Assembly (NCBI GenBank): GCA_029258885.1
Contig: JAPDJW010000002.1
Span: forward strand, 32,001-96,000
DNA from: Thermoproteota archaeon
GTDB lineage: Archaea; Thermoproteota; Thermoprotei; Thermofilales; B9-G17
Reading direction: 5' to 3'
DNA length: 64,000 nucleotides
A model generated the notes under the pieces. That model made no database searches, was not told the origin of the DNA, and saw only the letters and a list, made by a program, of their open reading frames with translations. Below, piece after piece: positions 1-12,534 of the stretch; the stretch's first letter is position 1; every line of letters begins with the position of its first letter. The position numbers and the translations under genes are program-made.

Positions 1-227
1 TTGAGATCTATAAATTTAGCTCCAACGATCTCCGGCTTACAGGCTATCTCTGATCCTTCGATAGTATCTAGGATATATACCTTAGTCGGCCTTCTACCCC
101 ACTTAACTGAAAACAGCCGCGTATCCTCATTAAGATAGTTCAGGTCAAGCTTTTCGGTTAAATCTACGTTAATTCTATGTCTGCTTATGATTTCATCGAG
201 AAGCCTTTGATTTTGAATGTAGTTCAA
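1..227 (-). CDS. Partial hypothetical protein (5' part only; runs off the window start)
   Basis: Manual translation from TTG at 227 is open to position 1: LNYIQNQRLLDEIISRHRINVDLTEKL...IACKPEIVGAKFIDL. Confidence 0.55.
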   Translation of the reverse strand, partial: MNYIQNQRLLDEIISRHRINVDLTEKLDLNYLNEDTRLFSVKWGRRPTKVYILDTIEGSEIACKPEIVGAKFIDL

Positions 228-426
228 TGCCCTAGCCTAAAATAAGGTGAAGAACTTATTAACCTTACTTTTACTTATCCTAGTTTTCCATTTAGCTACT
301 CCAGTTATTTTTTCAAATAGATGAGGCTACATAATTTTTAAGTTAAATTTTATTTAGTATTAGGGGGGTTTATTAGGCTTATTTTGATGTGTTAAGTTTA
401 AATTTATGTTTGTAATAGATAGATGT

Positions 427-849
427 ATGAGCAAAGTTGGGACGATTGGATATCATTATATTATAGAGGCAACGGGATGTGACCCGAAGATACTCGCTGA
501 CTCGAAAAGGCTAAGGGATATACTCACTGAGTCAGCTAAGGTAGGAAAGATGGATATTAGAATAGTGCACTTTTACAAGTTCTCGCCAACGGGCGTCAGC
601 GGAATGATAGTGGTATCGGAGTCGCACATATCCATTCATACATGGCCCGAGGAGGGCTACGCAGCAATAGATGTATACATCTGCGGTACGAAGTCGGAGC
701 CGGAGAAGACTATCGAGTATATACTAGAGCACATCAAGGCAAAGTATGCACACATAACGGAAATCAAGAGGGGAATTAAGGACAACGATGAGTATACGCA
801 CAGCATACTTTCATGGGACGAGACATTTGAAGGATCAAACCAAGATTAA
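427..849 (+). CDS. speD: S-adenosylmethionine decarboxylase proenzyme (pyruvoyl-dependent, class I); arginine decarboxylase paralogue not excluded
   Basis: FSPTGVSGMIVVSESHISIHTWPEEGYAAIDVYICG with the E-S-H self-cleavage site; ATG 427 preferred over ORF-track start 406. Confidence 0.85.
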   Translation: MSKVGTIGYHYIIEATGCDPKILADSKRLRDILTESAKVGKMDIRIVHFYKFSPTGVSGMIVVSESHISIHTWPEEGYAAIDVYICGTKSEPEKTIEYILEHIKAKYAHITEIKRGIKDNDEYTHSILSWDETFEGSNQD

Positions 850-1706
850 TTTATTCTATATTTAAATAGCTCCAGCATAAGCCTTCTCTCGGAAACATTC
901 ATAGGTCTCCCTAAAAACTCCTCAATATTCCCGTATAGCATATTTACGTCTCCATCATACATTCCACCAACTATCCACAGTAGTGCGTCTAGCCTTAAGG
1001 GCGGTATACGGGAGAGATAGCATATATCGCTCCAAACTCTCCTTACCAGAGTAGGATATTTACTTCTTAGAATCCTAACGGCATCAGACAATTTAATATT
1101 GTCTTCGGCCTCTATGACGCCATTTGATAGGCTTACCATACATACTCTATAGTCTACTGGTATGGGTATCTCAAACGGTACCTCTATCGATTTTCCCAAC
1201 GCCTTGAGTAGATAGTAGAACATTTTAATGCTGAAGACAATGGTTTTGGAGTCGCTTCTCGTATCCAATATACGGGCGAGATCATTTCGTAGCTTGGCCA
1301 GATCTAGGACGTATTCATCGAACTTAAGTCTTAGTAGTTGAGGCATCCTAGATATGTATAGTCTAGCTCTGCGTAGCCTAGCATCCCTGAATCTTCCTAG
1401 GCTTGGACTGTTCTCAACGAAGCTTAAGAGTATTAGTTCGGGTCTTTCCCCAGCGTTCCTGGCTACATGTTCTGCGAGGAGATTCCAGTGTTTTTCGCCC
1501 TTAACTGATAACATATAGCTTACTAATGCTGTTCCAACAATGATAATTGCCGCATCGACGGGATCATCTAGGATACTTAATATTTTTCGGACAACAACGT
1601 ATTGTATATCCTTTTCTTCGAGTTCATCTATTATCTTCCTACATGACGCCAGTATTTTACCGATTAATAATACTCTATCTCTATTAATTGAAAACATTTC
1701 AACCAC
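846..1706 (-). CDS. N-glycosylase/DNA lyase, AGOG family (8-oxoguanine repair)
   Basis: KTIVFSIKMF (catalytic Lys), IPIPVDYRV (catalytic Asp), LDALLW. Confidence 0.85.
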   Translation of the reverse strand: MVEMFSINRDRVLLIGKILASCRKIIDELEEKDIQYVVVRKILSILDDPVDAAIIIVGTALVSYMLSVKGEKHWNLLAEHVARNAGERPELILLSFVENSPSLGRFRDARLRRARLYISRMPQLLRLKFDEYVLDLAKLRNDLARILDTRSDSKTIVFSIKMFYYLLKALGKSIEVPFEIPIPVDYRVCMVSLSNGVIEAEDNIKLSDAVRILRSKYPTLVRRVWSDICYLSRIPPLRLDALLWIVGGMYDGDVNMLYGNIEEFLGRPMNVSERRLMLELFKYRIN

Positions 1707-1899
1707 TAATACTCCTTTTAACTATCTTAAGTATTTTAAGCGCCTTTCTCCTGCTTCGAGTCCTCAGCAACACATAGCTACCCATATCAACTACGTTAAA
1801 ATCGCTTAGACTTATACCCAGCCTACTAAGCAGACTCTTCTCTACTTTAACTACGTAGTAGCCCTCCGGATCCCTAGGTCCAAGCTCGCTCAATGACAT
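1699..1899 (-). CDS. Small hypothetical protein
   Basis: 66-aa ORF overlapping the AGOG start by 8 nt, which suggests translational coupling. Confidence 0.6.
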   Translation of the reverse strand: MSLSELGPRDPEGYYVVKVEKSLLSRLGISLSDFNVVDMGSYVLLRTRSRRKALKILKIVKRSISG

Positions 1900-2064
1900 A
1901 CCGCTAGAATTGATAACTCTAGCAATTAATTTGCTTTACCTCACTTAAACGTATACAACAAAGACTATTCGTTTATTTGGGATATTTTGGGAACGCTATA
2001 TTTATATTTCTCTTTTTGTTTGGATGCTTGGTGCTATCAGGCTTACGCCGATGACGGCTTACCC

Positions 2065-2199
2065 CGTAACCCGCACCCAGTGGTGTGCGGGAATGTAGCT
2101 CCCAATGAACCATCGAAAAAGGTGAAGTGGATGAGGAAGAAGCCCGTGCCAGCCATCAAAATATCGAAAATACCCAAAAGATAATGCACAGGCAACCAC
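2065..2199 (+). ncRNA. Orphan TnpB right-end/omega-RNA-like scaffold (non-autonomous IS200/IS605 remnant); putative guide from 2200
   Basis: Ungapped 106/135-nt identity to the reverse complement of 4565-4699; hairpins CCCGCAC/GTGCGGG and GCCCGTGC/GCACAGGC; similarity ends sharply after GGCAACCAC. Confidence 0.8.
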
Positions 2200-2204
2200 G
2201 TGTG

Positions 2205-2666
2205 TTACCAGTACCAGAGATACTTCTCGTAGTTTTCAACTTTGTATTTTCTGCCCTTCTTAACTATTTTAAATCCCTCGTTTCTCAGCCTCTCCGCCTG
2301 TAGCTCTACGCCGCCGGGGAACTTTTCGTTTAAGCTTCCATCGGCCTTTAATACGCGCCAGTAAGGTGTTACCTCGTCTAAGGTTTTCTCTCCCTTTCTC
2401 AGCATCTCCTCCGCGCACTCCGCAGCTATACGTAGGAACCATCCCGTAGCTAGTGGGCAGGTTAAGTCTGCTCCAAAATCTTTTGCAAGCTTATCCCTCA
2501 GTATTTTAACGGTAGAGAGCCTGCCCTTGGGAATCTGCCTTATCATGGAATCCACTAAGAGAGGCGAAGGTACAAGCATCTTGCCTCTTCCACGGGGATC
2601 ATCTTCAATATGCGGCTTAATATCCTTCCTAAGCTTTTCACACCAAGTCTTTCTCTTATAAACCAT
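2205..2666 (-). CDS. MGMT/alkyltransferase-like (ATL-type) DNA-binding protein
   Basis: IRQIPKGRLST...TCPLATG...TPYWRVLKADG...LRNEG; PYWRV in place of the catalytic PCHRV; ATG 2666 preferred over 2705. Confidence 0.75.
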   Translation of the reverse strand: MVYKRKTWCEKLRKDIKPHIEDDPRGRGKMLVPSPLLVDSMIRQIPKGRLSTVKILRDKLAKDFGADLTCPLATGWFLRIAAECAEEMLRKGEKTLDEVTPYWRVLKADGSLNEKFPGGVELQAERLRNEGFKIVKKGRKYKVENYEKYLWYW

Positions 2667-2990
2667 AGTTAAAAGCACCGATATCCAATAGTGTGCCATC
2701 AACATAAATCTAACCTATAAGATTGTTGTATGATAGCTTAGTGGTTGCTATAGTCGTACGAGTTAATTAAGCTAATTGAGTTTTGACTTGCCTATAGCAG
2801 TAATGCTATCGAACTGTATGAGCTATAGGTGAAAATATGAATTAGCTGAAATGTGTAAGGTTTATGAAAGAAGTTTTAACTACAGGGAAAAGCCAGTTGT
2901 TATACCTATGTAGTTAAAAGATCTATAGATAAGCAGTTTAGGAAGAAGAGATTATAAGTTGCACGAGATTGTAAGGAAAGATGTATGTTA

Positions 2991-3066
2991 TGGGGCCCGG
3001 GCCGAGATTTGAACTCGGGATCTTCGGCTCCACAGGCCGATGTGTTGCCGCTACACCACCCGGGCC
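2991..3066 (-). tRNA. tRNA-His (GTG), intron-less, with genomically encoded G-1, C73 and CCA
   Basis: Acceptor stem GCCCGGG/CCCGGGC, anticodon arm TCGGC-CTGTGGA-GCCGA, T arm with GTTCAAATC, upstream AAAAAATATAAAT BRE/TATA. Confidence 0.97.
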
Positions 3067-3242
3067 TCATTTAGTGTTTTAAAGAACTTTGATTTATATT
3101 TTTTGACGGTATTATGGGGTGTGGTGACTTTCATAATAATTTTAGATTATCGCGGGTTGTTGGTGATGGCTTTCTACGTGTTTGTCGATTGTCGTCTACA
3201 GTATGTTTATTTCTATCTACTGTTATTTTATGGTAGGGGATT

Positions 3243-4109
3243 ATGGTTTCTGAGATTGATTTAAGCTATATTTTTCAGGCTTTATCGCATGAGACTAGAA
3301 GGAAGATGATTAAGATTTTGGCTGAGAGGGGGTCTTTATCGTTTAGTGAGCTTATGGAGCTGGCTGGTATCGAGGAGACGGGTACTTTTGGCTTTCATAT
3401 GAGGAGGATTGAGGATTTAGTTGAGAAGCTTGATGATGGAAGGTATAGACTCTCGGATTTAGGTAGGCTTGCCTATAGCATTATATGTTTTGCTGAAGGT
3501 AAGGGAGATATTGTACCGTCTCGCCCCGTTAAAGGGGAGGTTAAGGTGTTTAACTATATATCTAAGGTTGTTGTTGATAGAAGTTTGCTGGAGAAGTACA
3601 GTAAGGTTGGCTTCGACTATATTGGTAAGGTCGTATTCACGGAGGATGTCGATGAGGAGCTATTCAGGGATAAGGTTCTCTTCTTTAAGGGAGTTGGGAA
3701 AATTGTTGTCCCTAAGCACTTGGTTAGGTTAGCTTACAGCCTACTGGATGAATACTGTGGCAGCGTTATCGGATATGAGGATAAGGTTCCGAAGCGGTGG
3801 CTTGAGGAGAAGAGAGGGGTCAGGGAACTGGTTAACTACGGTGAAATGGTAATTACCAGGAGAAGGCTTGAGAAGGCAGTTGAGGAAGGCTATATGCTTA
3901 GAATAGAAAACCATGGCACGCTCATCATAGAGGAGGACGTCAATCCCGAGCTATTCGAAAGAGCAGTATTTTCGATAGATTCACGTGGAGAAATATATGC
4001 CGCCAGTAAGCTACATAGGATAATCTCGGATAAGATAGAGAGTATAAGCGGAGGAGTAAGGGATCTAGCAGAGCTTACTGAGAAGGGTGCTTCACTTCAA
4101 CATGCTTAG
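3243..4109 (+). CDS. ArsR-like winged-helix regulator with internally duplicated C-terminal domain
   Basis: IFQALSHETRRKMIKILAERGSLSFSEL...FGFHMRRIEDLV...GRYRLS; repeated EDV..ELF...V unit. Confidence 0.75.
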   Translation: MVSEIDLSYIFQALSHETRRKMIKILAERGSLSFSELMELAGIEETGTFGFHMRRIEDLVEKLDDGRYRLSDLGRLAYSIICFAEGKGDIVPSRPVKGEVKVFNYISKVVVDRSLLEKYSKVGFDYIGKVVFTEDVDEELFRDKVLFFKGVGKIVVPKHLVRLAYSLLDEYCGSVIGYEDKVPKRWLEEKRGVRELVNYGEMVITRRRLEKAVEEGYMLRIENHGTLIIEEDVNPELFERAVFSIDSRGEIYAASKLHRIISDKIESISGGVRDLAELTEKGASLQHA

Positions 4110-4564
4110 CAGTTTACGTAGCTCGTTAATCTTAGCTTTTACGGCCTCCTCTGTCTTGAATTCATGCTCTATTCTATCTAGTAGCTTGCTTATTTTTACT
4201 TTTAAATCTCCTCCAGCTAGCTCCTCCACTCTTTTCCAGTCGATTGAATAGTAGTGCATGATCATTAGTTTAAGGGCGTCCTCTAAATCTTTGATGGAGG
4301 ATAGTATTAATACTTTAGCAACTATGTTCTCTTCCAGAGGAGTTATTTTAACGTCCTGACATTTTACGTGAACTGTAATGCTGCGCTTAAGCGACTCCTC
4401 GTCTAAATATGTTCTTGGATACTTGAAGTCAAGCCTATATCCATCTACGATAACGGTGAAGTGTCCTCCATTCCTATATGCTGCAAGTGCTTCATTGGGA
4501 TTTATATCGAAGTTCTCCCTTTTAAGCTCCTCTACAAGCCTATATATCGATTGTAGGCTATCTG
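4092..4564 (-). pseudogene. 5'-truncated nucleotidyltransferase-superfamily gene (about 157 codons), cut at the TnpB right end
   Basis: Manual translation PDSLQSIYRLVEELK...ITPLEENIVAKVLILSSIKDLEDAL...IDWKRV...MLK*; no start codon; frame begins at the element end. Confidence 0.65.
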
Positions 4565-4759
4565 GTGGTTGCCCGTGCTTTATATTTTGGAAATTATGAG
4601 TATTTCAGGAATTTGCACGGGCTTCTCCCTCAGCCACCTCATCTGGCTCGGTGGTTCATTGGAAGCTACATCCCCGCACACCACTAGGTGCAGGTTACGA
4701 TGGATTAGGCATATTCTCCCGCTCCTGATGGCTACTTTGCCGTCATTGGAGCGGGAGAA
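4545..4759 (-). ncRNA. Putative omega-RNA overlapping the tnpB 3' end; scaffold 4759-4565, guide about 4564-4545
   Basis: 12-bp stem TTCTCCCGCTCC/GGAGCGGGAGAA; CCTGCAC/GTGCGGG stem with GTGGT in the loop complementary to terminal ACCAC; perfect GCCCGTGC/GCACGGGC stem; end defined by comparison with the orphan copy. Confidence 0.75.
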
Positions 4760-5840
4760 GAGGTTAAGACAAGCAACATACTGAGCGTTAAATGTAAAAC
4801 CACATCTCCTACATCTAAATGTCTCTTTATCAACTCTATTCCTCTTATCCATGTAACCGCATATTGGGCATGTGATGGAGGTTTTCCTAGCATTAACCTC
4901 CAGTACACTCAAGCCTCGTTCATAGAATTTATAGTCAATGTACTCTATGAACCTACGGTATGGGAAGGTGGATAACCTGTAGTTCAGTTGCTTACTCTTC
5001 TTCCTACCATTAAGCCTTAAGTCCTTGAGGTTCTCTCTGATTAAGTCAGCCTCATATTCCTTGGCAGTCTCTGCTAGTAACGTAGTTATCTTCTTTAACC
5101 TATCCTCTACACGCTTCCTCTCACGACGACCATACTTAGCTAGGAGCTTATCGCGTACTCTTGGGTTCTTCACTTTCTCTTGTATGCTCTTCCTGATTCT
5201 CCTGTAGTTAGTACGTATTTTCCTGATATCGTGCCTTATTGAGAACAGTACAGCTTCATTCCTATTGTAATTAACTAGTAGGCAGTCAATACTATCCTCA
5301 TTAATATCTATGAAAAGCTTATTCTCATGCTCACCAACCTCAACGTTCTTACGTATGGTTAGGAGTAAGTAGATACTGTTACCATCAACTAGCATCTTGG
5401 AGTTGCCTAGCTTAGCTCCTTCAAGCTCTCTCCTAGCGTAATCGTACTTCATCACTAGGAATCTTAAGTAGACACCATTACCTTTAGATACCGTCAGTAC
5501 TGAGAAGCCGTGCCTTCTCTCAAGCTTGTAGGTATCAACGTGGAGTTCAACGACTTTATTATCCTCTACTGTAGGTAGTGATGGCGGCGATATTCTCTTC
5601 CTCTTCTTCTCCGGTAACCGCTTCCACCTGTTCAGTAGCTTCCTGTAGCTACGGTACATTGCTAACGCCCTCTTATATGCTTCCTGAACAAACTTATTGT
5701 GTAGGTGAGGATACCTTTCTCTCAATACTCTATAGCATAGCTCGTGTGCTTTCTTCCTACTGCAAACATTATTTTTAACAATGATTTTTAGAGCATCCCT
5801 TATCATTGCTGTATAGTCGTTTAGAAGAGAGAACAACTGG
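4565..5840 (-). mobile_element. IS200/IS605 (IS1341-like, tnpB-only) element; right end at 4565, left end not recognisable
   Basis: tnpB plus structured right end; no tnpA in the window; left boundary approximate. Confidence 0.7.
4580..5836 (-). CDS. tnpB: TnpB (IS200/IS605 family RNA-guided endonuclease) with non-canonical RuvC-III and probably clipped N-terminus
   Basis: RuvC-I FIDINEDS, RuvC-II IRENLKDL, YKFYERG, TSITCPICG...CRRCG zinc finger, NAQYVACLNL; 418 aa. Confidence 0.92.
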   Translation of the reverse strand: MFSLLNDYTAMIRDALKIIVKNNVCSRKKAHELCYRVLRERYPHLHNKFVQEAYKRALAMYRSYRKLLNRWKRLPEKKRKRISPPSLPTVEDNKVVELHVDTYKLERRHGFSVLTVSKGNGVYLRFLVMKYDYARRELEGAKLGNSKMLVDGNSIYLLLTIRKNVEVGEHENKLFIDINEDSIDCLLVNYNRNEAVLFSIRHDIRKIRTNYRRIRKSIQEKVKNPRVRDKLLAKYGRRERKRVEDRLKKITTLLAETAKEYEADLIRENLKDLRLNGRKKSKQLNYRLSTFPYRRFIEYIDYKFYERGLSVLEVNARKTSITCPICGYMDKRNRVDKETFRCRRCGFTFNAQYVACLNLFSRSNDGKVAIRSGRICLIHRNLHLVVCGDVASNEPPSQMRWLREKPVQIPEILIISKI

Positions 5841-6212
5841 TTATATAGGGAATATATTGCCTTAAGGAAATATGCTGAAAAATATGGAATTAGCTTTGCA
5901 ACATGTAAGGAGGGTTTCTTCAGCCTTCATACGGCTCCGGACTGCTGTGGCATGTTTTTCCTCGAAGACTATGTGCTAAGACCTACTCTTTATGAGGCGT
6001 GGCTTATGTATAGGCGGGATCGACGGGTTCCATCGATCGATGAATTACTTTCCGAATATTGTACCCAAGGAAATTACATCTGTAGTATTAGATTAGTCGA
6101 CTACCCGAGGGTAATTAGGAAGGGTATTAGAAATCACGAAAAAATGTTGGGGAAAGTGTTATGTAATAGAGAGCTTTTAGGGAAGGTAGCTTTTGAATTC
6201 ACCTATGTTTAG
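5838..6212 (+). pseudogene. C-terminal fragment of a radical SAM (SPL-like) gene
   Basis: Frame upstream of ORF 5952 reads LRKYAEKYGISFATCKEGFFSLHTAPDCCG, similar to the C-terminus of 34854..35741 (AHEYGLTFATCREGFPELH..TCNG); no CxxxCxxC part; 5' boundary approximate. Confidence 0.65.
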
Positions 6213-6508
6213 CTTTTCGTCGAGTTTACGCATACGTGTTGGCGGTGCCTATATGTATGTCTATGTACAGTCATGTTGCAGTTGTGGTGGTAGAGGTGCT
6301 GGCATGTGCACTTGTGTGTTCTAGTACAGTTATGGATTCTTAATCTAGTGTGGTTCTGACAGCATATTCTACACGGAGTATATCCCTGCCCTTCACTATC
6401 GTCTGTTGATTGATCCTGAACTGTTGTGCTTGGCTGGGTGTATGCTATAATTAGTCCTGCAAGCACTATCAGCATTATTATTGAAACTACGGCTATCGTC
6501 TTCATCAA
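6209..6508 (-). CDS. Small membrane-anchored/secreted Cys/His-rich protein
   Basis: N-terminal hydrophobic helix, Ser/Thr/Asp linker, then CRICCQNHT...HNCTRTHKCTCQHLYHHNCNMTVHRH. Confidence 0.6.
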   Translation of the reverse strand: MMKTIAVVSIIMLIVLAGLIIAYTQPSTTVQDQSTDDSEGQGYTPCRICCQNHTRLRIHNCTRTHKCTCQHLYHHNCNMTVHRHTYRHRQHVCVNSTKS

Positions 6509-6544
6509 GCATTAGGGGGCTAGGATACCTTAATTAAGGATTAT

Positions 6545-6973
6545 TCACAATTTGTGACTCCTAATTCGACTCAAGTCGTTATCCCATGTGCATAGCTTGT
6601 ATCTGAGCCTTAATATGGGATCCTTATCCACTAGAACTAGACCTTCCTTGAATATCCTAATTCTAATCCAGTCGCGGGCGAAACGTATATCGACAAAATC
6701 TATAGGGAAACCTATATTCCTTTCAAGCTTCTCGGCTAAATCGCTCAGATAATTATACGATTCTATTATGTCAGCTATCTTATTATCTAGAATTACCGCT
6801 ATATCTATATCCCTGAAAGGCCTATCCTTAAGGAATCCTCCGAAAAGTATTGCACATACAATGTTATCATCCTTAAGTAGTAGTTCCCTAATTAAATCTA
6901 CGACCTTCTCCTTTTCGCCGGGACTTAAAGTGTAAAATCTCAGTTTAGAACTATCCTTTATGCTTGGCTGCAT
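6545..6973 (-). CDS. Minimal nucleotidyltransferase (MNT) antitoxin
   Basis: AILFGGFLKDRPFRDIDIAV, IGFPIDFVDI, IFKEGLVL; ATG 6973 preferred over 7030. Confidence 0.8.
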   Translation of the reverse strand: MQPSIKDSSKLRFYTLSPGEKEKVVDLIRELLLKDDNIVCAILFGGFLKDRPFRDIDIAVILDNKIADIIESYNYLSDLAEKLERNIGFPIDFVDIRFARDWIRIRIFKEGLVLVDKDPILRLRYKLCTWDNDLSRIRSHKL

Positions 6974-7382
6974 ATTTAATAACCTCATCGATAAACGTTT
7001 TAATAGAGCCGATACCACTTTCCCTCGCATTCTTATATATTAAGGAATCATCTACCTCCCAGTACCTATGTACGACTAGATTCCTTAAACCCACAAGTTT
7101 TATCATATTATTAGCGGTATTCTCATCTATAACATTTAGTCTCGCTAATTCCCTAAAAACATCCTTATATGCCTCCGGTGCTTCATTGAATACCTCCTCC
7201 AAAATATGTATGCCCATAAGTGTACAGGCTTCCACCACCTGTACTATTGCATACCTCACTGCAAATACTATCTTGAAATCGTTTAGGAATAGATTTAATG
7301 GTCTAGAAGTAGCATCCTCAATTACCTTAAGCGCTACCTCCGCTTCACGCCTTAATCTATTTAATCGCCTAAAGTCTAACAT
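6951..7382 (-). CDS. HEPN (DUF86/HepT-like) RNase toxin
   Basis: AVRYAIVQVVEAC, GLRNLVVHRYWEVD (R-x4-H motif). Confidence 0.88.
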   Translation of the reverse strand: MLDFRRLNRLRREAEVALKVIEDATSRPLNLFLNDFKIVFAVRYAIVQVVEACTLMGIHILEEVFNEAPEAYKDVFRELARLNVIDENTANNMIKLVGLRNLVVHRYWEVDDSLIYKNARESGIGSIKTFIDEVIKYAAKHKG

Positions 7383-7487
7383 TATATCCTTACCAATTAC
7401 TTATCTATCAATAGTTTATATAAACACTTGTTCCTAGATTAGCACTAAGAAGATAAGTTAAATAGCCTATGTTTTTAGTATTTCGTT

Positions 7488-8075
7488 ATGGGAGATATAA
7501 TCAATGTTCTAGTTAACATTGCTAGGGAGACACAGGGTATTAAGTGGATTCTAGTCGGTAGTACGGCGAGCTATTTAAACGGCGTGGACGTTAGGCCTAA
7601 GGATATCGATATTTTATCCGATAGAGATGGCGCAATTGCCCTTGGAAGGTATTTATCCGCAAAGTACGAAGTTGTTAAGCCCATGACGTATAGCACTTCA
7701 GAAGTATATGAGAGCTACTTTGGAATATATAAAATAGGTGCCGTAAAAGTGGAGGTTATGGGCAACCTGGTAATTAAGGGTAGGTATGGAAGATTCTCGG
7801 TACCCTTTGATGAAATGCTACGCTTTTCTAGGGAGATTATATTAAAAGGGGTAGTTGTTCGACTAGTTCCGCTCGAGTGGCAGCTTGTAGCAAACCTCTA
7901 CATTCCAGGTAAGGAGAAGCGTGTGGACAGGATACTTGATGCTCTAGTAAGAAATGGTATAGATATTGAAGCGTTAAGATACATATTAAAGTATTGTAGC
8001 AAGGGAGTCGCTACAGTGGTTAATAGACTGCTGAAATCTAGAGGAGTAGAAGTCCAGTTAAATTACTTTATGTGA
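7488..8075 (+). CDS. Nucleotidyltransferase-fold protein
   Basis: WILVGSTASYLNGVDVRPKDIDIL, KVEVMG, VPLEWQL. Confidence 0.7.
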   Translation: MGDIINVLVNIARETQGIKWILVGSTASYLNGVDVRPKDIDILSDRDGAIALGRYLSAKYEVVKPMTYSTSEVYESYFGIYKIGAVKVEVMGNLVIKGRYGRFSVPFDEMLRFSREIILKGVVVRLVPLEWQLVANLYIPGKEKRVDRILDALVRNGIDIEALRYILKYCSKGVATVVNRLLKSRGVEVQLNYFM

Positions 8076-8116
8076 TCTTTACTGGTTTTAGAAAAGGAGA
8101 TTGGAATAAAATAGGT

Positions 8117-9367
8117 TTATAGGGTTTTGAATAGTAGTTTCAGTGATTTAATTAGTCCCAGCTTCTTGATTATTAGTGACTGTTTAGCTTTTAAGGCATT
8201 ATAGGCATATTTCCTGGAGTACTTGTGGTTTAGTAGCCATCCCATTATCCTCCTCAGCTCTCTATCCTCTATCGCTGCCTCTACTAGAGCATCCACTAGG
8301 TCGTCTGAGAGGTCGTGACCGTAGGACATCTTATGTAGCTTCATCGCATACTTTATTTCCTCCTCGTATATCTCTTTCATCCATCTATCCTGATACCTCT
8401 TTAGCGACGTCTCGCTTAGATCATTTTCTTCAAGCGCCTTAGCGATTACTTCGCTTGCAATAATTCCTGATCTTAGGGCATAGAATATTCCCTCGTAGCT
8501 GTAGGGATCAACTAGGCCGGCTGCGTCGCCTACTACCACGAACCTGTGTCCGTAGGTCTTCTTCAGCGGCTCGGTGGGTATGGTGTCTGCTACCAGCTTC
8601 TTCCCTTCAACAAGCCTTATTTTCGCTCCCTTAAGCTTCTCTGAGGCTATTGGATGCTCCTTTATGAACTTGTCAAGCCTTTCAATCATCATTTTAGCGT
8701 TTGTGCCAGCGTAGAAGTGTAGCCCTACCTCCACAACGTCCCTTCGCGGGAACATCCATACGTAGGCTAGCTGAGAATACGCCTGGTTGAAGTACACCTC
8801 TATGGCGTCTCCTATCCTCTCGTCAATTATCTTCTCGGGGAGCTCAAGCTCATACTGTATTACATTTATGTACTTCGGCGTCTCTATCCCCAGCTGTTTG
8901 CTTAAATTGGACTCCATGCCATATGCTCCTATAAGAACCTCGGCCTCATACTTCTCCTCCTTCCCCTCAACCTCCGCTGTAACCTCAACCTTATCCTCGA
9001 ATATCTTTATCTTAGTGGCCTTGGCATTATTGATTACGTCGGCGCCAGCCTTCTCAGCGCTATCCATGAGCCATTTATCGTATGCTGGCCTATAGACTAT
9101 GAAGCCTGGCTCCTTGGCACTGCCAACGTAAACGGATTTATTCGACCTCGAGACGACAAGGCCTTTAACTATCTTCCTCTCAACTAATTCATCGGGAACT
9201 TTAAGCAGATTATAGCATCCATTAGATATTCCTCCAGCACACGGCTTTACTCTCAGCCTAGAACCCTTCTCGAGAAGAACTACGTTAACCTTATTCTCGG
9301 CAAGCCTCCAGGCAGATATTGCACCAGAAGGACCACCGCCGATAACTACGACGTCATACTTTTTCAT
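8117..9367 (-). CDS. Geranylgeranyl reductase family FAD-dependent oxidoreductase
   Basis: YDVVVIGGGPSG, KPCAGG, YVWMFP, VVGDAAGLVDPYSYEGI; ATG 9367 preferred. Confidence 0.88.
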   Translation of the reverse strand: MKKYDVVVIGGGPSGAISAWRLAENKVNVVLLEKGSRLRVKPCAGGISNGCYNLLKVPDELVERKIVKGLVVSRSNKSVYVGSAKEPGFIVYRPAYDKWLMDSAEKAGADVINNAKATKIKIFEDKVEVTAEVEGKEEKYEAEVLIGAYGMESNLSKQLGIETPKYINVIQYELELPEKIIDERIGDAIEVYFNQAYSQLAYVWMFPRRDVVEVGLHFYAGTNAKMMIERLDKFIKEHPIASEKLKGAKIRLVEGKKLVADTIPTEPLKKTYGHRFVVVGDAAGLVDPYSYEGIFYALRSGIIASEVIAKALEENDLSETSLKRYQDRWMKEIYEEEIKYAMKLHKMSYGHDLSDDLVDALVEAAIEDRELRRIMGWLLNHKYSRKYAYNALKAKQSLIIKKLGLIKSLKLLFKTL

Positions 9368-9719
9368 AAACAGCACCGATATCTTAAAAGCCTTCAAATT
9401 AATAAGCATTAACACATATTCTATTGAAGACTATGGTAACAGTCAACTATCCGTGATATTACTCCTTTAATAATAGAGTAATAGCTACGTTATGCTTATC
9501 GATTTAAAATATTTTATCGCTCTTGTTTTTAGGTTAAATGATTTATTGTTGTAATGTATTATAGCGTATGGATCGGGTTAAGCTTAAGCTGACCCTCACA
9601 GACGAGCAGGTAATAGAGATGCTCCGAAAACACCGCTGACCTAACGGCGTAAGAATACACGCTGATACAAGAAAATCTGATTGAATATGTTTTCTGATTT
9701 TAGGTTAAAAGTTCTAGTC

Positions 9720-10808
9720 CTAGATAATTGCCTTTCCATCTTTTTTGTTGAATATATGGATGTGTTTGACGGGGATCTCAATATAAATCGTTTCATCCGG
9801 CTTTAGGCTTATTTCGCCTGGATATCTTGCTTTGTATATTTTTCCTCCTAGGCTAAAGTTAATAATCATTTCCCCTCCAAGTGGTTCCACAACATATACT
9901 CTACATTTGACCGTCGATGCCCTTGGTTCCTTATATATTTTAATGTGTTCAGGTCTTATACCTAAAACCACTTCTAAACCCGCCTTATCCCTTAAGATGC
10001 TACTAAATGTTTTTGGTAGTTTCAGTTTAAATTCTCCAGCATCTAGAACGATAAAGTCGTCCTTATATGTGAGAGTTGCATCAAAGAAGTTCATGGCAGG
10101 GGATCCTATAAAACCTGCAACGAATATATTTTGTGGTTTTTTATATAGATCACTTGGTGTACCTATTTGCTGAATCTTACCTTTATGAAAGACTACTATT
10201 CTGTCAGCCATAGTCATTGCTTCCACTTGATCATGTGTGACATAGATTGTAGTTATTCCTAACTCTTTCTGCAGCCTCTTGAGCTCGGCTCTCATATATA
10301 CTCTTAGCTTTGCATCTAAATTGCTCAGTGGCTCATCCATGAGGAAGACCTTGGGTTCTCGGACCAATGCTCTTCCTAATGCAACTCTCTGTTGTTGCCC
10401 ACCACTAAGCTGGCTTGGTCTCCTATCTAAAAGGTCTTCAATTTTTAGTAACTTAGCGACCTCTTCTACCTTTGCTTTAATGTACTTTTTCGGCATTTTT
10501 CTTACTTGCAAGGGAAAGGCTAAGTTATCGAATACCGTCATGTGCGGATAAAGTGCATAGTTTTGAAATACCATTGCGACGTCCCTTTCCCTGGGCGGTA
10601 TGTTGTTAACTAGTCTGCCACCAATGTATATTTCTCCTTCGTCAGGCCTTTCTAGTCCTGCAATCAACCTTAAAGTAGTAGTTTTTCCAGAACCGCTAGG
10701 CCCCAAGAGAACCACGAACTCCTTATCTTTAACGTCAAAGGATACCTTATTTACGGCTATTACCTTACCGAAACGCTTTGTAAGATTTTTAACTTTCACA
10801 TCCGCCAT
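9720..10808 (-). CDS. malK: Sugar ABC transporter ATP-binding subunit (MalK/MsmX type)
   Basis: GPSGSGKTT, VFQNYALYPHM, LSGGQQQR, DEPLSNLDAKLR, GIRPEH, C-terminal regulatory domain. Confidence 0.93.
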   Translation of the reverse strand: MADVKVKNLTKRFGKVIAVNKVSFDVKDKEFVVLLGPSGSGKTTTLRLIAGLERPDEGEIYIGGRLVNNIPPRERDVAMVFQNYALYPHMTVFDNLAFPLQVRKMPKKYIKAKVEEVAKLLKIEDLLDRRPSQLSGGQQQRVALGRALVREPKVFLMDEPLSNLDAKLRVYMRAELKRLQKELGITTIYVTHDQVEAMTMADRIVVFHKGKIQQIGTPSDLYKKPQNIFVAGFIGSPAMNFFDATLTYKDDFIVLDAGEFKLKLPKTFSSILRDKAGLEVVLGIRPEHIKIYKEPRASTVKCRVYVVEPLGGEMIINFSLGGKIYKARYPGEISLKPDETIYIEIPVKHIHIFNKKDGKAII

Positions 10809-10825
10809 GTTTCATCACGCTCCAT

Positions 10826-11659
10826 TTAGCCTTTAACTACCCAGCCGACCATTCCTCGGATATAGTATTTCTGTAAGGCAAGATATAATACTATAGGTAC
10901 AGCTATGATTATGAGCGAGGCAGCGGATAAAACACCCCAGTCAACATGATACTGGCCTCTCATTAGAGGCAGTCTCTGCGTTGCCAAAAGTTTATCAGGA
11001 GAATATATGAGAATTAACGCTAAGAAGAAGTCGCTCCAAACCCATGTGAATTGTAGTGCTGCAACTGATGCTATCCCCGGTAAGGATAGAGGGAGAACTA
11101 TTTTATAAAATATCTGGAAGTCCGTGGCCCCATCTATTCTAGCAGCTTCCTCCACTTCAACGGGAAGCGTGGCAAAGAAATTTTTCATAAAAAGTATTAT
11201 CCAAGGTAATCCCCACGCTGTATGTACTATGCTTAATCCGATAAGGCTGTCGAGCAATCCCAGTTTTTTCATTAACTGAAATAAAGGTATTGCGATGCTC
11301 TGTTGAGGAACCGCCATCAATAAAACAATTGTAAGGAAAAGGTAGCTTTTGATCGTAAAGCTGTATCTAGCGAAAGCGTACGCAGCAAGTGCTCCTATTA
11401 TTATCGGCATTATAGTTGCAGGAATCGTAACTATTAATGAATTTACTATTCCCTTACTGAGGGGTGCGGTCGGATGATATAAAGCATTAAATATGTTGGT
11501 TAATGAAGGGTTAAATTCGCTAAAATCCCACCATCCACGTACTATTTCCTTGTATGGTCTAATCGAAGCCATTAATATCCCCATTAGTGGCAGAATCCAT
11601 ACAAACGATATGGCCCATGCTATTACGTTGATAAGTATGGCAACCTTGTTTATCTTCAT
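10826..11659 (-). CDS. Carbohydrate ABC transporter permease (MalG-like)
   Basis: EEAARIDGA EAA loop, multiple TM helices, operon context. Confidence 0.92.
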   Translation of the reverse strand: MKINKVAILINVIAWAISFVWILPLMGILMASIRPYKEIVRGWWDFSEFNPSLTNIFNALYHPTAPLSKGIVNSLIVTIPATIMPIIIGALAAYAFARYSFTIKSYLFLTIVLLMAVPQQSIAIPLFQLMKKLGLLDSLIGLSIVHTAWGLPWIILFMKNFFATLPVEVEEAARIDGATDFQIFYKIVLPLSLPGIASVAALQFTWVWSDFFLALILIYSPDKLLATQRLPLMRGQYHVDWGVLSAASLIIIAVPIVLYLALQKYYIRGMVGWVVKG

Positions 11660-12534
11660 TTTCTCACCACGTACTTAAACATGACTATAGCAACAATTAG
11701 GGTTAGTGCAGTTAAAAGAGTGGCGATTACGGATGAGGCGTTAAAGTCTAGGCTTCTAAATGCTAGGAAATACATCAATAATGCGAGAACGTTTGAAGCC
11801 CCTCCAGGTCCGCCATAAGTTGCCACATAAACTATATCGAATATTTTAAGCTCCCATAAAAGGGTCATCGTAACCACAGTTGTTGTAACCGGCTTAAGGA
11901 GAGGCAGGGTTATTCGAAAGAATATCTGCATAGAGGAAGCTCCATCAATTTTTGCAGCCTCGTAATACTCCTTTGGTATCATAGCGAGACCAGCAGAGTA
12001 TAGAATTAAACTAAACCCAGTCCAAAGCCAAACAGAACCTAAAATTAAGGAAAATAAGGCTGTGTCAGGGTACATGGTCCAGGTCCTGACAAGGTGACCT
12101 AAACCAATCGCCTTGAGAAACATATTAACAACCCCTACCTCCCTGTCGAAGGTAAACCTAATAATTATTCCTCCCACGATTAGGGGAGTCACCATGCCTA
12201 AAAATATGATGGATTTAATTATGGATGAACCCTTCACGTTCTGTAGAAGAACTGCTAGTACCAATCCGAGGAGTGTGGATAGGGGAAGATGTATGAGAAT
12301 CCAGATAGCGTTATGAACTATAGCCCCCATCGGGAAGTAACCCTTTAAAATTCCATCGTAGTTGATCACTTCCCTCCTACTTAAAACTCTAATATAGTTG
12401 TCAAAACCTACAAAATAACCTTCAGGAGAGAGAAAACTGAGAGAAATAGTAGCAGAAATTGGATATAGGACGAAAATTATTATCAGAATTAGGGCAGGTA
12501 AAATGAAAAAGTAGGGGGTTAGGTTTAGCTTCAT
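11656..12534 (-). CDS. Carbohydrate ABC transporter permease (MalF-like)
   Basis: YEAAKIDGAS, ITLPLLKP, FDIVYV. Confidence 0.92.
   Translation of the reverse strand: MKLNLTPYFFILPALILIIIFVLYPISATISLSFLSPEGYFVGFDNYIRVLSRREVINYDGILKGYFPMGAIVHNAIWILIHLPLSTLLGLVLAVLLQNVKGSSIIKSIIFLGMVTPLIVGGIIIRFTFDREVGVVNMFLKAIGLGHLVRTWTMYPDTALFSLILGSVWLWTGFSLILYSAGLAMIPKEYYEAAKIDGASSMQIFFRITLPLLKPVTTTVVTMTLLWELKIFDIVYVATYGGPGGASNVLALLMYFLAFRSLDFNASSVIATLLTALTLIVAIVMFKYVVRK

Follow-up and report, generated by a model that had tools for sequence, protein, structure and literature searches.

An archaeal IS607-type TnpB lineage with glutamine or histidine at the RuvC-III aspartate position

Introduction

A TnpB-like reading frame in a 64,000-nucleotide stretch of Thermoproteota DNA (hereafter the window) carries glutamine where the third catalytic residue of the RuvC nuclease is expected, and the question raised by this locus is whether the glutamine marks a decaying gene, a protein that binds DNA without cutting it, or a nuclease with an altered active site. 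Every TnpB or Cas12 enzyme tested to date loses cleavage when any residue of its D-E-D triad is changed (PMC10705468). An altered RuvC-III motif has been described in six large TnpB branches, the largest of which replaces Asp by His, and the rearranged branches Ser-6 and RIIIr-6 are archaeal and occur with a serine recombinase (Altae-Tran et al. 2023, PNAS, PMC10691335). A further group, the TldRs, is bacterial, has lost tnpA and the transposon ends, lies beside fixed partner genes (fliC, oppF, csrA) and usually carries at least two triad mutations or a truncated RuvC C-terminus (Wiegand et al., PMC10705468, PMC13622181). Single-residue variants were left out of the TldR study, as many proved spurious (PMC10705468).

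Results

The window frame encodes a TnpB with a D-E-Q triad

The reading frame at 4580-5836 on the minus strand (418 codons counted from a TTG, with the open frame reaching back to 5926) is a TnpB with a WED-REC-RuvC-zinc finger fold. With 110.5 bits it exceeded the cut-off of the NCBIfam model guided_TnpB (NF040570), which is 100, and it matched the Pfam domain Cas12f1-like_TNB (PF07282) with an E-value of 1.7e-16. An AlphaFold model built on 101 sequences (pLDDT 88.3) retrieved Cas12f/TnpB structures in Foldseek with E-values between 1e-16 and 1e-9, namely AsCas12f, OsCas12f, Fanzor2, ISFba1 TnpB and ISDra2 TnpB. The best matches in both structure and sequence were AsCas12f and OsCas12f (PDB 7WJU, 8J12, 9NZQ), which share the WED-REC-RuvC-zinc finger arrangement and align without gaps through RuvC-III; unlike the window protein, Cas12f is CRISPR-associated, has the canonical Asp of N-A-D at RuvC-III and reads D-x-G at RuvC-I.

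Reading the minus strand directly, GAT at 5306-5308 encodes Asp177 in the context F-I-D-I-N-E-D, GAG at 5033-5035 encodes Glu268 in the context L-I-R-E-N-L, and CAG at 4781-4783 encodes Gln352 in the context C-G-F-T-F-N-A-Q-Y-V-A-C-L-N-L. The coordinates given in the first-pass annotation for the frame, the RuvC-I Asp, the RuvC-II Glu and the CAG codon thus all hold. The complete RuvC-I motif, D177-I-N-E180-D181, occupies 5294-5308 (Glu180 at 5297-5299), and the CxxC...CxxC zinc finger of the TNB domain (Cys323, 326, 342 and 345) lies at 4802-4870, upstream of Gln352. In profile and pairwise alignments to solved chains, Gln352 falls without a gap on the Asp of CGYEANADYNAARNI in AsCas12f (7WJU) and on the Asp of CGFSANADFNASQNI in OsCas12f (9NZQ), and family alignments place it in the same RuvC-III column. 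The aligned Asp of N-A-D, D401 in AsCas12f, is a catalytic residue. The triad of the window protein is D177-E268-Q352 instead of the canonical D-E-D.

The RuvC-III substitution is shared by the lineage

A word-indexed protein search returned 183 significant matches, of which the best 120 (about 60-99% identity) were aligned with the query to give a family of 121 proteins. Among the matches listed, the named homologues came from Thermoprotei, Desulfurococcales, Acidilobaceae, Thermofilum, Fervidicoccus and Bathyarchaeia assemblies. In this alignment, drawn from the best 120 of 183 matches, the RuvC-III column holds Gln in 112 proteins, His in six, a gap in three and Asp in none; Gln or His is therefore present in all 118 proteins that have a residue there. 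Asp177 and Glu268 are unchanged in 121 of 121 proteins of the same set, and the successive D, N, E and D columns of the D-I-N-E-D motif are conserved in 121, 120, 121 and 116 proteins, respectively. The alignment of homologues that the first-pass annotation had proposed, in order to see whether the two motifs go together, thus finds the NAQ-type Gln and D-I-N-E-D conserved side by side.

DNA loci fetched independently gave the same picture, with Gln in 44, His in eight and Asp in none (n=52). The His form reads N-S-H-Y-V-A-C-L-N-L and is represented by the proteins P0114 and P0117 and by the loci L047-L052. The substitution is clade-wide and conserved in both data sets, and Gln at RuvC-III is a feature of the lineage, not a fresh mutation; as a lineage trait, the pattern lies far beyond chance. 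This bears out the earlier view that the Gln is unlikely to have arisen by a fresh single mutation, and the observation that the annotation had named in advance as speaking against its interpretation, Asp in all close homologues, is the opposite of what the alignment and the fetched loci contain. The two substitutions between Asp and Gln are explained by a His intermediate (GAY to CAY to CAR): a single change separates His (CAY) from Asp (GAY) as well as from Gln (CAR), and the family holds both His and Gln.

A private inactivating Gln mutation in a decaying pseudogene would be in keeping with the window copy, which is truncated and has no tnpA. With Gln or His in 118 of 118 proteins (best 120 of 183 matches) and in 52 of 52 loci, most of them complete elements, and with Asp in no homologue, this explanation has next to no probability, and private decay of an Asp codon was ruled out.

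Glutamine and histidine occur in a D-x-N-E background

For a wider comparison, 103 relatives were sampled from an exhaustive search, a sample biased towards relatives of the query, and a tree was built without the motif columns. His or Gln occupies RuvC-III in 26 of 40 proteins with D-x-N-E at RuvC-I and in two with D-F-N-N, but in none of the 48 D-x-G relatives among the 103. Within the DxN(E) clade (51 rows of the tree), the state switches between Asp, His and Gln at least ten times. The canonical Asp is kept in 13 DxNE relatives, one of which is a paralogue from the genome of the window, with D-V-N-E at RuvC-I, the Asp of H-R-D at RuvC-III and 27% identity to the window TnpB. This second tnpB is full-length (contig C2:438298-439467), and both types of RuvC-III site are therefore present in one genome.

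DxNE is therefore a permissive background, not a Gln-specific change, as Asp, His and Gln switch within the DxN(E) clade and His or Gln never accompanies DxG among the relatives sampled; DxNE is ancestral to a larger clade that includes members with the canonical Asp. The split between DxNE and DxG occurs once on the tree, and the association with His or Gln is accordingly without independent replicates. The first-pass annotation had proposed to see whether the RuvC-I motif and the Gln co-vary. D-x-N-E is indeed linked with Gln, but compensation specific to Gln was rejected on account of the 13 DxNE relatives that retain Asp, including the DVNE...HRD paralogue. An Asp at -2 (the first Asp of DRD-type motifs) was likewise considered as a general substitute for the RuvC-III Asp: it is found in many distant His and Gln relatives (DRH, DRQ), but the query family, which reads FNAQ, lacks it, and the idea was dropped. 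The link between His or Gln and DxNE is an observation of the present analysis, and we found no mention of it in the text of PMC10691335.

The window copy is truncated

A metagenome contig (Ga0209410_1000762, locus L025) is 99-100% identical to the window on either side of 2,269 bp that are absent from the window. Full-length homologues begin MTIKTIEKTIKLKLIPLTxxDKNQ..., about 24 residues before the frame annotated here, where the window has unrelated DNA, and the missing codons correspond to the first WED strand. The absent segment comprises the left flank of a split host gene, the left end of the element, tnpA and the 5' end of tnpB, together with a membrane-protein ORF, a 72-aa ORF and, on the opposite strand, the first ~240 codons of a radical-SAM gene. 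Judging from this comparison, the window copy lost its tnpA and left end, and with them about 24 codons of the tnpB N-terminus, through a 2,269-bp deletion between 8-bp repeats, whose junction is the microhomology AACCAGTT at 5835-5842 (minus strand). The first-pass annotation was right that the left end and tnpA are absent, although their absence is attributable to this deletion and is no sign of exaptation; likewise, the frame is open over 418 codons, as had been stated, but the gene is 5'-truncated.

Between the window and L025, tnpB differs by 11 synonymous and three non-synonymous changes, which suggests purifying selection until recently and a deletion that looks young. With the promoter region, native start and first WED strand lost, the window copy is most likely non-functional.

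The window retains the 3' third of the radical-SAM gene (5817-6212, plus strand; 372 aa on L025), and this host gene was inactivated too, since the same 2.27-kb deletion took its first ~240 codons. Adjoining the element at 6545-7382 (minus strand) are overlapping genes for a Pol-beta-type nucleotidyltransferase (MNT) and a HepT-like HEPN ribonuclease, a pair that is a typical type VII toxin-antitoxin module. On the other side, a 288-aa protein with an N-terminal winged-HTH domain (DUF7347/HTH_20) and a weak RHH_8 match is encoded at 3243-4109 (plus strand), convergent with the interrupted host gene.

Related loci are IS607-type transposons

An alignment of upstream DNA revealed a conserved gene overlapping the start of tnpB in related loci. 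In the 205-aa TnpA of L025, an HTH_17/MerR domain precedes the Resolvase catalytic domain (PF12728, PF00239), an order that identifies the protein as IS607-type. Among the 52 loci whose tnpB is complete at the 5' end and preceded by 700 nt or more of sequence, 48 have a tnpA gene directly upstream on the same strand. The context statistics derive from a metagenome scan; a scan of genome contigs yielded nine loci.

At the left end, DNA conservation begins at G-A-C-T-R-T-T, roughly 90-110 nt ahead of tnpA, and at the right end it stops at ...CACGGGCAACCAC, 15 nt beyond the tnpB stop codon. In related loci, 47 distinct sequences lose their homology at ...GGGCAACCAC and have unrelated flanks beyond it, and conserved ends abutting unrelated flanks were seen in more than 40 loci. 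The lineage was present in seven of 120 genomes of the class, in one copy each, and its members are 70-82% identical across different families and even orders, a patchy distribution typical of mobile DNA. The lineage is an IS607-type transposon family and not a domesticated gene.

The start of tnpB itself is unusual. In several loci (L025 at 3001-3048, and L004-L008 at the corresponding place), the conserved stretch with which TnpB begins (KTIKTIEKTIKLKLIP...) comes after a stop codon or an open frame, with no ATG, GTG or TTG, and it overlaps the 3' end of tnpA; counted with this in-frame stretch, tnpB of L025 spans 3001-4326. Because these start codons are absent at the conserved N-terminus, gene callers begin TnpB 16-34 residues late, which suggests that translation starts at a non-canonical codon (ATT or ACG) or is coupled to that of tnpA.

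A conserved omega RNA overlaps the tnpB 3' end

The last ~195 nt before the right end contain conserved stems with compensatory changes, which affect 12 of 24 predicted pairs. In a 7-bp hairpin (GRCSGSC/GSCSGYC), two pairs differ on both sides in 19-20 of 44 sequences; one pair of a CUCC/GGAG-type helix shows 11 double changes; and an 8-bp long-range pairing, GCCCGUGC/GCACGGGC, located just ahead of the 3' terminal CAACCAC, shows three and six double changes at two pairs. By eye, there is a further hairpin, CCACC/GGUGG, for which other members have CCUGC/GCAGG, CCCAC/GUGGG or GCGC/GCGC. The window retains each of the four elements intact, and here the scaffold spans 4565-4758 (minus strand), its last 15 bases lying past the tnpB stop and the remainder within the 3' end of the ORF, with the right end ...CACGGGCAACCAC as its 3' terminus. 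The C-terminal 30 residues of TnpB, which have a pLDDT below 50 in the AlphaFold model, are probably conserved because of the RNA. That the guide-RNA scaffold has been retained shows that selection acts in this lineage on the RNA-guided component. A search of window positions 1-12000 against Rfam matched no omega RNA family; the sole hit (67 bits) was a tRNA gene at 2994-3065 (minus strand), about 800 bp from the miniature element described below.

On the TnpB model, the predicted guide (CAGATAGCCTACAATCGATA) would be the flank adjoining the right end, at 4545-4564 (minus strand), which forms part of the interrupted host gene. The window also contains a miniature non-autonomous derivative of the same IS607-like family, 237 bp long (1963-2199, plus strand), in which the left end (GACTATTCG...) is joined directly to the last two-thirds (3' side) of the omega RNA, followed by the right end (...CACAGGCAACCAC). 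A second copy in the same genome assembly (G000 contig C5:42384-42619, L083) is 96% identical and has unrelated flanks; the derivative was therefore mobilised in trans. Each miniature copy could supply a stand-alone guide RNA.

The element interrupts a host gene

The sequence at 4092-4564 (minus strand) is the 3' part of a gene for a protein of about 205 aa that is split by the element and has intact homologues in other genomes. The left flank on L025 encodes ...VGGLACILMGIRRVTEDVDFIIR, and the right flank, which corresponds to window 4092-4564, continues with PDSLQSIYRLVEEL...; intact homologues elsewhere read through the insertion region with the same length and are exactly collinear. The target reconstructed from this protein collinearity, a single site, is ...ATAATTAG-AC-CAGATAGC... 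(...TTAG-AC-CAGAT...), with AC at both junctions, and the element would have inserted into the ~205-codon host gene at ...TTAG-AC-CAGAT.... Occurrence of AC at both junctions without duplication is expected for a serine recombinase that exchanges strands at a 2-bp core. Two copies of the element end in AT, and no empty-site DNA was found that would define the 2-bp core.

To the left of the element, G-AC is present in 38 of 38 sequences, a purine at -1 in 35 of 38, and A or T at -2 in 30 of 38, while the assignment of G-AC to target or element follows from the one reconstructed site. A strong TAM upstream of the left end was not found, just W-R at -2/-1 plus the invariant G-AC. Following the established TnpB homing model (PMC13622181), W-R-G-A-C is a candidate TAM that, once the donor joint is vacated, would lie beside the flank matching the guide, and the flank after the right end would serve as guide.

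Discussion

The window ORF is best explained as a 5'-deleted remnant of an IS607-family insertion sequence. The intact element runs from a left end through tnpA, whose serine recombinase product carries an HTH at its N-terminus, and a tnpB that overlaps tnpA and holds the omega RNA in its 3' end, to the right end ...GGGCAACCAC, and the lineage comprises Thermoprotei TnpBs with Gln, or less often His, at RuvC-III and strictly conserved RuvC-I Asp, RuvC-II Glu, zinc finger and omega RNA. Canonical IS607 TnpB elements (ISFba1 TnpB, PDB 8IAZ; IS607 of Helicobacter pylori) likewise have a tnpA with N-terminal HTH, a tnpB and a 3' omega/reRNA, as well as asymmetric ends; their insertion without target duplication would also agree with the one site reconstructed here. 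In contrast to them, the present lineage has the triad D-E-Q/H instead of D-E-D, places the omega RNA scaffold almost wholly inside the ORF and inhabits hyperthermophilic Thermoprotei.

This kind of RuvC-III variant is already catalogued. The lineage fits the RIIIr kind: it shares the clade-wide replacement of the RuvC-III Asp, the archaeal hosts and the association with a serine recombinase, but has mostly Gln rather than His and, unlike RIIIr-4, keeps the C4 zinc finger (PMC10691335). Resemblance to TldRs extends to the TnpB fold, the departure from the canonical RuvC triad and the retention of a guide RNA (PMC10705468, PMC13622181). Where TldRs have lost tnpA and the ends and sit beside a fixed partner gene, tnpA is present in 48 of 52 loci here and the flanks are unrelated between loci; where TldRs have a degenerate RuvC, RuvC-III alone is changed here and the C-terminal region is present. 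On account of the retained tnpA and ends and the unrelated flanks, a TldR-like domestication of the lineage was rejected. The first-pass annotation had seen the protein as either an RNA-guided binder or a compensated nuclease: a TldR-like repressor is unlikely, as it does not fit complete IS607 elements that possess tnpA, ends, omega RNA and unrelated flanks, whereas a compensated nuclease is plausible.

As to whether the D-E-Q/H site cuts DNA, we give a little better than even chances to a site that is altered and yet active; a non-cutting DNA binder has a smaller, though still considerable, likelihood. Held with the same slight preference, an active lineage would still serve transposon maintenance as an RNA-guided enzyme whose metal site is modified, in that the Glu at +3 supplies negative charge and Gln or His acts as a neutral ligand or hydrogen-bond partner. 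The invariance of Asp177 and Glu268 and the residence of the lineage in complete transposons favour a working site. The repeated exchange of Asp, His and Gln in the DxN(E) background suggests that proteins of this type can do without the third carboxylate, and the invariant RuvC-I Glu at +3 is the obvious candidate for supplying the charge. By analogy, the active site of retroviral integrase (D64-x-T66-H67) is lined by the residues at +2 and +3 from the first Asp, and His can take the last catalytic position in other RNase H-fold nucleases, as in the DEDH tetrad of Argonaute. Conserved RuvC-III substitutions have also been argued to imply retained activity (Altae-Tran et al. 2023, PMC10691335). 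Counting against an active site, a change of one triad residue ends cleavage in every TnpB or Cas12 tested (PMC10705468), Gln is a weak metal ligand and a poor substitute for a metal-binding carboxylate, and single copies in seven of 120 genomes give no sign of vigorous homing.

It is rather unlikely, though well short of negligible, that the D-E-Q/H lineage is nuclease-dead for DNA and resides in the transposon as an RNA-guided binder that, for example, occupies or marks the donor joint, regulates the element or aids the return of the recombinase. Such a role would agree with the loss of cleavage upon single DED substitutions in tested TnpB and Cas12 enzymes (PMC10705468), with the inability of Gln to act as acid or base, with the low copy number and patchy distribution, and with the fully conserved omega RNA, by which RNA-guided binding would be retained. 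A pure binder would have no need of Asp177 and Glu268, which are nevertheless invariant in the 121 proteins (best 120 of 183 matches) and nearly so in distant His and Gln relatives; Asp, His and Gln interchange repeatedly within one clade, and neither a truncated C-terminal RuvC nor a new gene association, as known from TldRs (PMC13622181), is seen. More specifically, TnpBs of the D-E-Q/H type might be unable to cut and yet reside in active IS607 elements, serving by RNA-guided binding alone, for example to mark the vacated donor joint or guide the recombinase back, a proposal we consider improbable; if true, such a role would be distinct both from homing cleavage and from TldR-style repression of host genes.

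As a special case of a non-cutting protein, the modified RuvC site may be kept only for processing the element's own transcript into omega RNA, with target DNA left uncut, which strikes us as quite doubtful. Cas12c retains its RuvC for crRNA processing. The omega RNA lies almost wholly inside the ORF and must be cut from the mRNA, and a processing role would account for conserved Asp and Glu beside a weakened third ligand; in the TnpB studied, however, processing reportedly uses the same full triad. That TnpB processes its own mRNA into omega RNA is documented (PMC10278001).

As a deletion remnant, the window copy itself adds little. Cas12 descends from TnpB, which also serves as a compact genome editor, and how much variation the RuvC site of TnpB tolerates without loss of activity is a testable question. 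The lineage offers a natural test set, with Gln and His variants, close DxNE relatives that have Asp, a defined omega RNA, a candidate TAM and hyperthermophilic hosts. An active lineage would mean that a DxNE background makes the third carboxylate dispensable; an inactive one would mean that a nuclease-dead TnpB is maintained within a mobile element.
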